Shown here piece by piece: positions 9,715 to 21,764 of a DNA stretch of 64,000 nucleotides. The translations under genes and the position numbers were made by a program. Where the stretch lies: positions 3,567 through 67,566 of the forward strand of contig JAKFBW010000055.1 of assembly GCA_036676965.1 (NCBI GenBank), read 5' to 3'. Origin of the DNA: Flavobacterium sp. GTDB lineage: Bacteria > Bacteroidota > Bacteroidia > Flavobacteriales > Flavobacteriaceae. Below the pieces are notes generated by a model. That model was not told the origin of the DNA. It was given only the letters and a program-made list of their open reading frames with translations, and made no database searches. Numbering within the stretch: position 1 is the stretch's first letter; every line of letters starts with the position of its first letter.

Positions 9715-9800
9715 AGTCCTTAGTCCTTAGTCGGTGAGTCCTTAGCTTTATAAATTAAAAAAGTCCCTGGCACTTATTTCTAAACACTAGGGACTAACTC
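9715..9800. repeat. 7-bp-periodic inverted array (AGTCCTT ... AGGGACT)
   Basis: AGTCCTT AGTCCTT AGTCGGT GAGTCCTT ... CACTAGGGACTAAC; same family as 14893, 15538, 15974 and 21700. Confidence 0.75.
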
Positions 9801-9803
9801 TAA

Positions 9804-11150
9804 TTAAACAGCTCCTTGAGCCAGCATCGCATCGGCCACTTTTACAAATCCGGCAATGTTGGCTCCTTTTACGTAGTTTATATAACCATCGGGTTCGACT
9901 CCATATTTTACACAGGAAGCATGAATATTCAACATAATCCCTTTTAATTTTTCATCCACTTCTTCGGCTGTCCAGCTCAACCGCAAGGAGTTTTGGGACA
10001 TCTCCAACCCTGAAGTAGCCACTCCGCCCGCATTAGAGGCTTTTCCCGGAGAGAATAATAATTTAGCTGTTTGGATTATGGCAATCCCTTCCGGAGTGGT
10101 TGGCATATTGGCCCCTTCGGCAATACAAATACATCCGTTGGCCACCAAAGCTTTGGCTCCAGTTTCATCCAACTCGTTTTGGGTTGCACAGGGCATGGCA
10201 ATATCACATTTTACCTCCCAAGGACGGGAATTGGCAACATATTTCGCCTTTGGATATTTTGTGACATAATCTTTAATTCTTCCCCTTAATTCATTTTTAA
10301 TCACCATTACATGCGCCAATTTCTCGGCATCAATTCCATCGGCATCATAAATATATCCGGAAGAATCAGACATCGTGACCACTTTTCCTCCCAACTGGGT
10401 AGCTTTCTGCACCGCATACTGCGCCACATTCCCTGAACCGGAAATCACTGCCGTTTTCCCGGCGAACTGCTCCCCTTTGGTAGCCAACATGCTTTGGGCA
10501 AAATATACCGCCCCGTATCCTGTAGCTTCAGGCCGGATTAACGAACCTCCGAAAGAAATTCCTTTCCCGGTTAAAACCCCGGTAAATTCATTCCTCAATC
10601 TTTTGTATTGACCAAAAAGATAGCCCACTTCTCTTGCACCAACCCCAATATCCCCGGCAGGCACATCGATATCGGCACCAATATATTTAGACAATTCAAT
10701 CATGAAACTTTGGCAAAAACGCATCACTTCATTATCGGATTTTCCTTTGGGATCAAAATCAGAACCTCCTTTTCCACCGCCCATGGCCAAGGTGGTCAAA
10801 CTGTTTTTAAAGGTTTGTTCGAAAGCCAAAAATTTCAGGATACTCAAATTCACCGAAGGGTGAAAACGAAGCCCTCCTTTATACGGGCCGATAGCCGAAT
10901 TCATCTGGATACGATACCCCCTGTTGACTTGGATTTCGCCTTTGTCATCAATCCAGGTGACACGAAAAGTAACAATTCGTTCCGATTCCACCATCCGCTC
11001 CAAAAGCATCTTGTTCTGGTATTTTTTATTTTCTTCGATAAACGGAATTACGGTATCGGCAACTTCCAAAACCGCCTGTAAAAATTCTGGCTCATTAGGA
11101 TTTTTTTGAGCGACCCCTTCCATAAAGGAAGTAATACTTTGCGATATCAT
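9804..11150 (-). CDS. gdhA: NADP-specific glutamate dehydrogenase
   Basis: GPYKGGLRFHPSV, GGGKGGSDFDP, DVPAGDIGVG, RPEATGYG, GSGNVAQY, EGANMP. Confidence 0.97.
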   Translation of the reverse strand: MISQSITSFMEGVAQKNPNEPEFLQAVLEVADTVIPFIEENKKYQNKMLLERMVESERIVTFRVTWIDDKGEIQVNRGYRIQMNSAIGPYKGGLRFHPSVNLSILKFLAFEQTFKNSLTTLAMGGGKGGSDFDPKGKSDNEVMRFCQSFMIELSKYIGADIDVPAGDIGVGAREVGYLFGQYKRLRNEFTGVLTGKGISFGGSLIRPEATGYGAVYFAQSMLATKGEQFAGKTAVISGSGNVAQYAVQKATQLGGKVVTMSDSSGYIYDADGIDAEKLAHVMVIKNELRGRIKDYVTKYPKAKYVANSRPWEVKCDIAMPCATQNELDETGAKALVANGCICIAEGANMPTTPEGIAIIQTAKLLFSPGKASNAGGVATSGLEMSQNSLRLSWTAEEVDEKLKGIMLNIHASCVKYGVEPDGYINYVKGANIAGFVKVADAMLAQGAV

Positions 11151-11197
11151 ATGGTTCGATTTTTAGTGTTAAAAAAACGTTTTCGTACGTATATACA

Positions 11198-11205
11198 CAA
11201 ATATA
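11198..11205 (-). promoter_or_regulatory. -7 promoter box for gdhA (TATATTTG)
   Basis: Exact TAnnTTTG about 48 nt upstream of the ATG. Confidence 0.55.
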
Positions 11206-11391
11206 CATTTTAAAAAATTATTCAAACCTTCGTTTTCCATATTAAAAGAAAGAATTATCTTTTTTTTAATGAAGCTGTGAAAATCAGATTTAATCTTGCC
11301 CTTTTAAAGAAAAACAGTGTCGTTTTCATAGTCAAATTTGCATTTGACTGCTTTATTTTAATTTTATCCTAAGGGATGACTGATGTTTTTA

Positions 11392-11399
11392 TATCTTTG
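11392..11399 (+). promoter_or_regulatory. -7 promoter box (TATCTTTG)
   Basis: Exact TAnnTTTG 25 nt upstream of ATG 11425. Confidence 0.55.
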
Positions 11400-11424
11400 T
11401 CGAGACTTGAAATTCCAATATAAA

Positions 11425-19703: not shown

Positions 19704-19745
19704 AAACCGCAAATTCGCAGATTTTAATCTATGAATTTGCGGTTT
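19704..19745. terminator. AAACCGCAAATTC...GAATTTGCGGTTT palindrome between convergent island genes
   Basis: Third variant of the AACCGCAGATTCGCAGAT palindrome; A/T tracts on both sides. Confidence 0.65.
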
Positions 19746-19815
19746 TATTTTTTATGGATGAACTTATGTTACTGCGCTAACGATTGTGGTAAATATGAGC
19801 GGTTGGGTCAAACCA

Positions 19816-21114
19816 TTATTTTTTTGCAAGTTTCCAATAGTTAGATTCAAAATGCCCTCTAACCTTACCAACTTTATTGTTAACAATAAAATCAAATAGC
19901 TCCTTTTGTTTAGGAAGCATAGTTTTATCCTTAATCAAATCTAGAATCTCATATAATCTATTTGCAGCTGATAAATTAGATAGCTTTCTAGATATTTCGA
20001 TATCACTTTCTAAAAGTTTAAATAAAGTTCTTATTCCTGTTTGAGATAAATCAGATATCATTTGTGTATTATACTGCTGTGCATCTCTTGCAATTCCATA
20101 ACCGTTTCCAAGAAAAGAAACCATTACTGCTTTAACATAAGTATGCATTGATGATAAAGGAACATTTTGTCCTAAACTTACTAAATCTCTAGCATAAGCT
20201 GGTTCGTGATGAAAATTGTCCCAACCATAATGAGCATCAAGTAATGCTTGTGAATGTTTTTTAAATATGATTTCTTTAAATGAATCTGGTATGTACTCAA
20301 CACCATTAACAAGTTTAAGAAACTCTAAAGCTTCACTTGCAGCATCTTTTCCTTTGATATCTCTTAATGATGAGAACTTTGAAGCAATATTACTTCTAAT
20401 ATCATCCGACACCAACTCCCATAAGTTTGGTCCAATTTGACGAATATTGTATTTTAAATTTGGGTCACAATCTTGTTTTATAAAATTGGCAAATAAATTG
20501 TGAATTATTGGTCCATGTATTTTTTCAGATTGACTTTCGATAATTGCATTTATTTCCTCTACACTTTCTAATCTCTCTAATGTTAAACTTTCAATCAAAT
20601 CTTTGATTTGAAGTCCACGAGCAGGCATGTCAAAAGTTAGGACATATTTGATGCAATTTTTTATAAAATTATAGGTTTCAAATTTGTCAATTTCACCCAT
20701 CGGAAAATGAGCAGTACTAAAATTATTTCTAATTTCTCTACATTGTTGAAGAAAAAAATGAGCTTCATTAGGAATTATTCCTAATCCAAAGGCACCCGTA
20801 ATTAATTGATAGTCCTTAACTTCTCTTAAATCTTCTAAGATTTGTAATGGTTTACCATCCCAATTAATGGCACTCGAAAAATATTCAATTCCATAAGCGA
20901 TAATTTTTTTTTGGATATCAAACATAGCTAGATTCCAAACATAATTTATTGCAGCATCATTAAGACCTGATTCAATTGCTATTCGGGTTTTCTCTAAACT
21001 TGTTTCTAATCGATACTCTGGTCTTATTGCAAGTTTTACGTTTTCCCATCCTTCGAGAAAATTGTCAACTTTTTCAATATGCTTAAATCTATCTGGTAAT
21101 ATTAATTCTGCCAT
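19816..21114 (-). CDS. Uncharacterised 432-aa protein with a HEPN-like R-x6-H motif
   Basis: CREIRNNFSTAHFP within a helical N-terminal region; AT-rich; inside the direct-repeat-bounded island. Confidence 0.6.
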   Translation of the reverse strand: MAELILPDRFKHIEKVDNFLEGWENVKLAIRPEYRLETSLEKTRIAIESGLNDAAINYVWNLAMFDIQKKIIAYGIEYFSSAINWDGKPLQILEDLREVKDYQLITGAFGLGIIPNEAHFFLQQCREIRNNFSTAHFPMGEIDKFETYNFIKNCIKYVLTFDMPARGLQIKDLIESLTLERLESVEEINAIIESQSEKIHGPIIHNLFANFIKQDCDPNLKYNIRQIGPNLWELVSDDIRSNIASKFSSLRDIKGKDAASEALEFLKLVNGVEYIPDSFKEIIFKKHSQALLDAHYGWDNFHHEPAYARDLVSLGQNVPLSSMHTYVKAVMVSFLGNGYGIARDAQQYNTQMISDLSQTGIRTLFKLLESDIEISRKLSNLSAANRLYEILDLIKDKTMLPKQKELFDFIVNNKVGKVRGHFESNYWKLAKK

Positions 21115-21210
21115 ATATTTGTTTTAATAGTTGTCAACTCATTTACCAATTTAACAAACCTTATTTTAATTCAAATATAGAAAATAATACTTACAAAAAT
21201 GAAATAAAAA

Positions 21211-21297
21211 AACCGCAGATTCGCAGATGTAAAATATAATCTGCGAATCTGCGGTTCTATTTTTTTTTAGCTAATAGCTTATTTCACTATAACCCCG
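21211..21297 (+). repeat. Right copy of the direct repeat (palindrome plus native 3' end of the 21279-21686 gene)
   Basis: AACCGCAGATTCGCAGAT-12nt-ATCTGCGAATCTGCGGTT (perfect 18-bp arms) followed by the shared tail. Confidence 0.8.
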
Positions 21298-21686
21298 TCA
21301 ACAAATAGTAATGGCACTTCTTCCACTTCTGATTCGTTGATAGAATTGGCTTTGAAAATATATTTTTTATCATACAAGGTATTCCCGATGAAAAAGGTAA
21401 CCATAAATTCATTGTTTAGGGCCAATACACTTTTTTCGATCATTTCAATCTTTACTACTGAAACGGCAGGAACTTCCACAAAAGCGTGACGCAAAAGCGA
21501 GGTTTTTTTCATTTCGCCATCCAATGTCCCGAAAGCCTTAGAAACGACCATGACACCATCCAGTTGAAAATCGCTATCGTTAACCAGGTACACATACCAA
21601 ACTTTCTCCATAAAATCGTCGTTCCATTCTTGAACGGCGGCCAGGAAAACATTTTCTACTTCGGGGATGATGATGTCTTTTTTCAT
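21279..21686 (-). CDS. Conserved Flavobacteriaceae hypothetical protein
   Basis: MKKDIIIPEVENVFLAAV...WYVYLVNDS...KTSLLRHAF; core-like composition. Confidence 0.75.
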   Translation of the reverse strand: MKKDIIIPEVENVFLAAVQEWNDDFMEKVWYVYLVNDSDFQLDGVMVVSKAFGTLDGEMKKTSLLRHAFVEVPAVSVVKIEMIEKSVLALNNEFMVTFFIGNTLYDKKYIFKANSINESEVEEVPLLFVDGVIVK

Positions 21687-21699
21687 ATATTGTGTGAAT

Positions 21700-21764
21700 A
21701 GTCCTTATACTAGTCCTTAGTCCCTAGTCCTTAGCGAAAAGAGTTTCACTAGGGACTAAGGACT
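21700..21764. repeat. 7-bp-periodic inverted array (AGTCCTT / AAGGACT)
   Basis: AGTCCTT...AGTCCTT AGTCCCT AGTCCTT ... CACTAGGGACTAAGGACT. Confidence 0.8.

Follow-up and report, generated by a model that had tools for sequence, protein, structure and literature searches.

What are the short inverted tandem repeats that fill several spacers between the genes of a Flavobacterium genome, and what do they do there? The question was raised by a 64,000-nt stretch of DNA (hereafter the window; C55:3567-67566, from contig JAKFBW010000055.1 of assembly GCA_036676965.1) belonging to a draft genome of 4.28 Mb and 36% G+C, whose nearest sampled relative is F. flevense DSM 1076 and whose close relatives are named Flavobacterium species. 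A preliminary description of the window, made from its letters only, had pointed out degenerate AGTCCTT heptamers mirrored by their reverse complement, AAGGACT, at five intergenic sites (9715, 14893, 15538, 15974 and 21700). The analysis reported here leads us to favour, at a probability of roughly 0.55 for the reading as a whole, the view that these sites are part of a genome- and phylum-wide family of tandem 7-nt arrays, which form the arms of stem-loops of the intervening-sequence (IVS) type in operon transcripts, with or without a gene in the loop.

Five inverted heptamer sites and the gene between two of them

Arrays were classified as G-type or C-type by their G/C excess, and z scores derive from local RNA folds of whole spacers. 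The sites, together with the 23S rRNA intervening-sequence protein gene (IVP, PF05635 family) that separates two of them, are listed by window position.

9714-9746, minus strand: AGTCCTT array upstream of recO (8958-9671); C-type (AAGGACT) when read in the direction of the minus-strand genes
9762-9803, minus strand: small AGTCCCTGG / CTAGGGACT hairpin with G-type units, adjoining the stop codon of the minus-strand glutamate dehydrogenase gene (9804-11150)
14888-14965, plus strand: gene-less heptamer hairpin filling the yicC-gmk spacer; -33.3 kcal/mol, z -5.7
15536-15603, plus strand: heptamer hairpin of the gmk-IVP spacer; local fold z -4.1
15604-15969, plus strand: PF05635 / TIGR02436 four-helix-bundle gene, 121 aa, Avd-like; cassette cargo, between gmk and nadD
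15970-16036, plus strand: IVP-nadD spacer; z -1.0, 8-bp stem only
21687-21772, minus strand: AGTCCTT/AAGGACT hairpin with no gene in it, bounded by the stop of pheS (21773) and by the start of a 135-aa gene (21686); z -6.0

All five sites proved, on reading the sequence, to carry AGTCCTT/AAGGACT arrays as described, and Tandem Repeats Finder called a period of 7 at each. The pattern AGTCCTTAGTCCTTAGTCC (AGTCCTT x 2.7), searched with up to 3 mismatches, matched the window 11 times, always within the five sites, against 0.00 matches expected from 100 shuffles. Both arms exceeded the pattern threshold, with matches on both strands, at 14893 and 21700; a single arm did so at 9715, 15538 and 15974. 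The imperfect hairpins reported for all five sites were strong at three of them, 14888, 15536 and 21687 (z -4 to -6), and weak in the two other spacers, 9672-9803 (z 0.08) and 15970-16036. The hairpin at 14888-14965 is composed of a G-arm at about 14890-14920 and a C-arm at about 14926-14955, and the IVP-nadD spacer holds a short G-arm (15975-15984) followed by a C-type array (16009-16034) that stops 2 nt short of the nadD ATG. Folding of the entire cassette (15536-16036) gave a local hairpin in each spacer, yet both the minimum-energy and the centroid folds contained a 12-bp stem in which the outer G-arm (about 15540-15551) pairs over a long range with the far C-arm (about 16011-16022). The protein encoded at 15604-15969 matched PF05635 (E 3e-37) and TIGR02436 (E 8e-37), its nearest solved structure being PDB 2GSC; the Avd-like match was weak (bAvd Pfam E 3e-7, NF033474 weak), the Avd models staying below their cut-offs.

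PF05635 genes lie between complementary arrays

The genome contains 7-8 PF05635 loci, and arrays were found on both sides of the gene at four of seven of them, compared with 11 of 3,569 other genes (p 7e-9); a fifth locus is flanked by period-8 arrays. The 5-6 IVP paralogues of the genome are 27-50% identical to one another and each is surrounded by a different unit alphabet. This association, which the preliminary description missed together with the link to 23S rRNA IVSs, was then measured in a set of 80 PF05635 loci from Flavobacterium and other Flavobacteriales, collected with a two-sequence alignment as query, an alignment of five paralogues being too divergent. Spacers were scored at lag 7 (at least 15/21), with the other spacers of the same loci as background. 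The threshold was reached by 71% of the spacers upstream of the gene and 87% of those downstream, versus 19% of the other spacers, and by about 0% at other lags. Flank complementarity, computed as duplex energy for 71 loci, showed the upstream spacer to be complementary to the downstream one in 96% of them, with a median of -26.7 versus -9.7 kcal/mol and same-locus pairs exceeding cross-locus pairs (p 5e-15). The two arms covary, each locus having its own alphabet (AGTCCTT, AGTAATT/AGTGATT, AGGCAAT/AGCCAAA and others). In the usual layout the host stop codon lies inside the first unit, followed by (TAGTNNN)n, ATG-gene-TAA, (NNNACTA)n and the ATG of the next host gene, which places the cargo gene in a loop.

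Two further observations concern this genome. A frameshifted PF05635 pseudogene (G000 C62:22730-23090) has a TTTTCAG G-arm adjoining the upstream stop, its 3' end and downstream arm being missing. The genome's highest flank complementarity scores, 57 and 50, belong to two 153-aa genes (G000 C21:11838-12299 and C129:51032-51493) bracketed by GC-rich inverted repeats resembling repetitive extragenic palindromic (REP) sequences; these may be pairs of a REP-associated tyrosine transposase (RAYT)-type gene and its REPs.

A genome-wide family with a fixed handedness

A genome-wide period-7 scan had been proposed as a check of the five sites. Applying a lag test (at least 16/21 matches) to the spacers of the whole genome, we found 94 period-7 arrays compared with 3.8 in shuffles and with 2-21 arrays at the other lags from 4 to 12, and the intergenic autocorrelation peaked at lags 7, 14 and 21. 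In total, 119 arrays were recorded at 105 sites. The commonest unit is AGAAGTT/AGAGGTT, followed by GAGTTAT, TAGATTT, AGTCCTT, AAGTTTA, CAGATTG and CAGTTTT; the alphabets share an AG core, usually AGT, and TTAG/CTAA occurs in nearly all the units of this genus. Arrays lying 0.25-10 kb apart in this genome share their unit in 33% of pairs, versus 11% of other pairs (p 5e-9). Local sharing with the alphabet of the local IVP gene was not general across the 80 loci (2.17 vs 2.35). Beyond the genus, the pattern TTAGNNN x 4 was present in 145 of 401 Bacteroidota genomes and 70 of 178 genera; the reversed-pattern control of this phylum scan is an unclean null, GATTNNN arrays being real alphabets.

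The arrays are oriented with respect to one another and to the neighbouring genes, a feature that had escaped the preliminary description. In all ten spacers with both types, the G-type array precedes the C-type one (p 0.002). Only about 30% of the arrays have an inverted partner less than 130 nt away, and it lies to the right of G-type and to the left of C-type arrays (19:6 vs 5:16, p 9e-4). The remaining 70% or so are lone direct arrays, likewise overlooked before, and they too are handed: those beside a start codon are mostly C-type on the sense strand (39:16), at distances mostly between -12 and +11 nt, and those beside a stop codon mostly G-type (30:16; odds ratio 4.6, p 3e-4). Where the spacer measures 130 nt or more, 44% of the arrays abut a gene end, against 18% expected, and those at stops are G-type by 17 to 0. 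The rule is broken at one site in the window, 43073-43187.

Filled and empty sites, turnover of units and transcription

Comparison of orthologous spacers, another check suggested beforehand, revealed gain and loss of both arrays and genes between species. At the gmk-nadD site, a context that much of the genus has kept stable, five same-genus relatives have the gene and 11 lack it, and the empty site of one genome (G016) consists of G-arm, 8-nt loop and C-arm. At the site of paralogue 2 (C55:78962), G008, G009 and G006 carry the gene, and F. flevense and seven others do not; in G004 and G005 the empty site is a GTTTAAA hairpin with an 11-nt loop. The site of paralogue 4 (C137) is filled in F. 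flevense, holds empty heptamer hairpins in G008 and G012, and has no spacer at all in three genomes. The filled and empty states of these three orthologous loci show that IVP presence is patchy against phylogeny.

The arrays themselves change by whole units. In F. flevense the corresponding three spacers carry an identical alphabet at other copy numbers, and a freshwater strain has a G-arm longer by two units (+14 nt). In a groundwater-metagenome strain (about 95% identical), nine substitutions cluster in 55 nt of the gmk-IVP spacer, and through them degenerate units become canonical AGTCCTT/AAGGACT, as in a conversion. These changes lend partial support to the shared generating mechanism that had been postulated; no support was found for its variant of templated heptamer addition. 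The arrays do mark positions at which a gene may be there or missing, three orthologous sites being filled or empty by species; the postulated use as recombination sites is a conjecture.

A search for RNA sequencing runs containing this strain returned none, and DNA metagenome contigs yielded strain variants and relatives with replaced spacers only. For a freshwater Flavobacterium with the order sdhA-IVP-sdhB, metatranscriptome contigs connect sdhA to IVP and IVP to sdhB, in each case across the array that separates them. Since these contigs span both junctions, the gene and its arrays are co-transcribed with their neighbours in this relative. One contig joint that skipped the sdhA-IVP-sdhB cassette was considered as a product of RNA excision and rejected, as it came from a different organism.

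The same cassette in other phyla and in rRNA

A tblastn search of plasmids located the protein in 31 records, 24 of them cyanobacterial. A period-7 array was found in a flank of 15 of 18 cyanobacterial plasmid copies (background 0.09 arrays per kb, chance 0.023; p 3e-22), and in 13 of the 18 the flanks are inverted with the G-type arm upstream, the same handedness as in Flavobacterium. Their units (GGGAGTA, GGAGTCA, GGGAACA, GGGAAAA) resemble the short tandemly repeated repetitive (STRR) sequences of cyanobacteria, which had been named as a loose precedent for the window arrays; the precedent is real, and the arrays form one family with a common architecture. An Azospirillum copy (L152) lies inside large-subunit rRNA (Rfam 401 bits) and is thus a true 23S IVS, with period-7 arms of the same handedness.

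Several of these copies deserve mention on their own account. In four cyanobacterial plasmids (L138, L142, L148 and L135) the cassettes are located within CRISPR-cas operons (cas6-cas4, upstream of cas4, cas10-cmr3) or separate ribonucleotide reductase subunits. In the Pseudanabaena copy the arrays, of 17 and about 12 units, are direct and not inverted. On a plasmid of Nostoc sp. C052 (L154:15948-16087), a pair of G- and C-type heptamer arrays (GGCAGAG / CTGCCTT) is located inside an annotated hypothetical coding sequence, suggesting that gene calls run across such arrays.

Other unit alphabets and other elements of the window

Hairpins of the same architecture with other alphabets had been reported at 22827, 23256, 23907, 28537, 43083 and 45421/46180, and the following elements were delimited.

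22817-22890, minus strand: AAGTTAG-alphabet array and hairpin separating a 124-aa gene (22891-23265) from pheS; z -3.2
23255-23312, no strand assigned: AAGTTAG/CTAACTT hairpin in a divergent spacer; stem of 21 bp, fold at 23266 z -4.1
23907-23972, no strand assigned: CAGnnnn / nnnnCTG heptamer hairpin in a convergent spacer; z -3.3
28525-28602, minus strand: CAGTnnn / nnnACTG hairpin, period 6-7, between two minus-strand genes; z -8.0
43073-43187, minus strand: two non-complementary arrays, period-8 ACTAAGnn and period-7 TTTTCAG; z -0.6
45421-46240, plus strand: arrays enclosing a 215-aa ORF; G-type ATAGAGG units at 45421-45452, complementary C-type units at 46183-46240

The first four fold as hairpins (z -3.2 to -8.0). 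At 43073-43187 the arrays are unpaired, and at 45421/46180 they are complementary but split by the 215-aa open reading frame (ORF). That ORF (45486-46133), which lies between the ATAGAGG and CCTCTAT-type arrays, is a second gene in a hairpin loop; it is not an IVP and had no match in Pfam or NCBIfam. The 124-aa gene between AAGTTAG arrays was considered as a hidden IVP and rejected (hhalign probability 0.1%, no Pfam or NCBIfam match). Period-8 arrays (ACTAAGnn / TAAGGTTC), a minor variant of the heptamer family, occur at 43075-43113 of the window and at G000 C92:10857-11357, and one such pair brackets the IVP paralogue on C92.

In an Rfam search of the window no family covered the hairpins and no rRNA was found, the sole matches being two Flavo-1 RNA motifs (RF01705, 64 and 60 bits) at 42434-42532 (plus strand) and 51806-51899 (minus strand), unrelated to the heptamer sites. 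A 66-nt tandem duplication (26830-26957; 1.9 copies, 91% matches, internal 9-nt periodicity) was also noted inside a minus-strand gene (26673-27437).

Discussion

The reading that we favour takes the full cassette to be a 5' G-type array, a small PF05635 gene and the reverse-complement array, as found in the window at 15536-16036, flanked by gmk and nadD. The hairpins that enclose no gene (14888, 21687, 22817, 23255, 23907 and 28525) would be the same stems with a short loop, representing either ORF-less derivatives or unfilled sites. The arrays would be transcribed with their neighbours, as seen in the sdhA-IVP-sdhB relative, and their arms would pair into an extended stem, a prediction supported by the locus-specific complementarity of the 71 loci. 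RNase III, for which this genome has a gene, would probably cut the stem as it does in 23S rRNA IVSs, judging from the homology of architecture, and the cut would punctuate the polycistronic RNA and release the cargo mRNA. The arms meanwhile turn over fast, by the whole-unit gain and loss and the conversion observed between strains and species.

The known system closest to this proposal is the 23S rRNA IVS of Coxiella and Leptospira, an element of about 430-500 nt, similar in size to the present one, in which terminal inverted repeats form a stem whose loop contains a gene of the same family, with heptamers of strain-variable copy number just upstream of the ORF (PMC4990558). In Coxiella, two or three GACAGAT heptamers, their number varying among strains, precede the S23p ATG, and the 5' cut by RNase III falls at the first heptamer repeat (PMC4990558). 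The Flavobacterium elements share the extended stem, seen in the fold of the window cassette and across the 71 loci, and the PF05635 ORF in the loop. They differ in location, 23S rRNA IVSs occupying helix 9, 25 or 45 and the window copy lying between gmk and nadD, in the spacers of protein-coding operons, and in that many gene-less and single-arm copies are dispersed over the Flavobacterium genome. The IVSs of 23S rRNA are excised by RNase III, and the architecture suggests the same cleavage here.

Several points weigh against this reading. Two of the five AGTCCTT sites (9672-9803 and 15970-16036) fold no better than shuffles, and about 70% of the arrays of the genome have no inverted partner. 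The empty paralogue 2 sites of three relatives (G011, G012 and G001) hold G-type and C-type arrays that are not complementary, so that neither the arrays nor their handedness can be put down to pairing alone. The 80 loci are not independent, since many are orthologues of one another (gmk-IVP-nadD), and the gene maps are our own ORF calls rather than the output of a gene finder. RNase III cleavage of cassettes carried by mRNA is putative, resting on likeness to the rRNA IVSs, and we know of no preference of this enzyme for a 7-nt period.

The best of the alternatives, which we consider possible though distinctly less probable, is that a trans-acting protein whose footprint covers 7 nt binds to the arrays as a platform, on single-stranded RNA or DNA. 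The protein would be either a PF05635 oligomer, each paralogue reading its own alphabet, or one of the cold-shock-domain or S1 type. In that case translation or stability of the flanking genes would be under the control of the arrays, the hairpin being secondary; this view overlaps with the IVS-type stem-loops and does not exclude them. It would account for the distinct alphabet around each IVP paralogue, for the way in which arrays in the longer spacers hug start and stop codons, and for a handedness that persists without complementarity. Moreover, 163 arrays away from IVP genes match the IVP-flank units of their own genome better than those of other species (mean minimum distance 1.39 vs 1.90 ± 0.15; 0 of 300 random sets), although this within-genome matching could equally be explained by descent of ORF-less copies from cassettes. 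The optimal heptanucleotide of Bacillus CspB, GUCUUUA, resembles GUCCUUA. S1, Csp or Csr proteins were proposed by MacGregor in 2015 for TAACTGA repeats just before start codons (PMC4679880), and in Nostoc, where heptamers occur near start codons, heptamer deletion affects reporters (bioRxiv 10.1101/2022.06.06.494920). Against a platform of this kind, the neighbouring arrays of the 80 loci generally lack the local IVP alphabet, and what is known of Avd-type proteins is partnership with reverse transcriptases rather than the reading of sequences.

It is rather unlikely that the arrays are DNA-level insertion or recombination sites, att-like or serving as homology targets for cassette entry and exit. 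Such a role would fit the patchy distribution of IVP genes, the closest relative F. flevense lacking IVP2 and having IVP1 and IVP4, as well as the empty sites that are intact hairpins of G-arm, short loop and C-arm, the second, unrelated ORF in a loop at 45486-46133 and the sharing of units between arrays 0.25-10 kb apart. Some filled sites have the order [G][C]-IVP-[C], which is what recombination between direct C-arrays would be expected to give. On the other hand, no recombinase accompanies the cassette, contexts such as gmk-nadD are stable, and no junction or circle reads were seen in the metagenome and metatranscriptome contigs. The low identity among the paralogues further indicates that there has been no recent burst of movement.

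Less probable again is that the arrays are neutral microsatellites, slippage-prone AT-rich heptamers whose hairpins and gene association are by-products. Turnover is indeed fast, with orthologous spacers containing different units or no array, unit number is polymorphic and many arrays are lone and degenerate. Neutral slippage agrees poorly with an enrichment confined to period 7 (and, to a minor extent, 8), with the fixed handedness, with locus-specific complementarity across a 360-nt gene in nearly all the loci measured, and with the recurrence of the same design in three phyla and in rRNA.

That the hairpins are ordinary intrinsic terminators or attenuators, as their position directly 3' of stop codons might suggest, is highly improbable, because no T run follows any of them and the terminator scan of the region flagged none, whereas it does flag canonical elements made of CTGCGAATCTGCGG and a T run, and because many of them lie within conserved operons (yicC-gmk-nadD) and RNA contigs of a relative read through the arrays. 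The CTGCGAATCTGCGG hairpins, with T runs on both strands at 19165-19206, 19707-19742 and 21213-21254, resemble canonical bidirectional terminators, and it is they that are the true terminator-like elements here. Since the arrays vary across species and are not terminators, the outcome that the preliminary description had named as fatal to its own view, arrays invariant across distant species and coinciding only with transcript ends, is not the one found.

Other repeat systems resemble the Flavobacterium arrays in part. STRR heptamers were reportedly described in heterocystous cyanobacteria by Mazel et al. in 1990. They are likewise tandem 7-nt intergenic units, often abutting start codons, with several families per genome at frequencies far above chance, and cyanobacterial PF05635 genes are bracketed by STRR-like units. 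In Flavobacterium, by contrast, the units are AGAAGTT, AGTCCTT, GAGTTAT and others rather than STRR1-3. STRR sequences are, besides, described as direct arrays, neither inverted pairing nor a PF05635 link being found in the STRR literature searched. The TAACTGA direct repeats of marine Beggiatoaceae, some cyanobacteria and five Bacteroidetes were found in forward orientation a few nt from start codons, with a reverse-orientation set directly after a stop codon, and other heptamers were recorded in Gramella and Aequorivita (MacGregor 2015, PMC4679880). Our units fit the same WAACTNN / NNAGTTW shape, and the C-type (forward) orientation near start codons holds in this genome. Unlike those repeats, TAACTGA itself is present here as 218 single copies and zero tandem pairs, and the Flavobacterium arrays have many alphabets, frequent inverted partners and gene cargo.

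Short imperfect palindromes between genes are also characteristic of REP sequences, bacterial interspersed mosaic elements (BIMEs) and other palindromic repeats, and integron attC sites are structure-defined, sequence-variable hairpins bounding single-gene cassettes. REP/BIME and attC elements have no internal 7-nt periodicity, and the heptamer cassettes are associated with neither a RAYT nor an integrase and are not gathered beside an integrase. Finally, the cargo protein shares its four-helix-bundle fold family with Avd of the diversity-generating retroelements. In contrast to Avd systems, no reverse transcriptase, template repeat or variable repeat lies nearby, the neighbours being yicC, gmk and nadD. 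The literatures on STRR, TAACTGA repeats and IVSs treat the parts separately, and a link between PF05635 and inverted heptamers outside rRNA was not found in the literature searched.

A bolder proposal, which we offer tentatively and against the odds, is that PF05635 proteins are the partners acting in trans that have been missing for the heptamer repeats of bacteria (STRR, TAACTGA and related families). Each paralogue would be born inside inverted arrays of its own alphabet and would read, protect or propagate that alphabet genome-wide; gene-less hairpins and lone arrays would be protein-addressed punctuation of operon RNA, and 23S rRNA IVSs would be copies that landed in rRNA. The phyla concerned largely lack Shine-Dalgarno-led initiation.

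Practical consequences also follow. Many stop codons are set by the arrays, and the annotation of some coding sequences runs across them, so that gene calling is affected, and the variation in unit number could be used as a strain marker. More generally, heptamer repeats (STRR since 1990, TAACTGA since 2015), 23S rRNA IVSs (since 1990) and the common "four helix bundle / S23p" family have each stood unexplained, separately, for 10-35 years. Our results suggest that they are parts of one kind of element, and this makes several questions testable in Flavobacterium or Nostoc: whether RNase III cuts the stems in mRNA, whether the protein binds the repeats, and whether the neighbouring genes are coupled or uncoupled by the hairpins.

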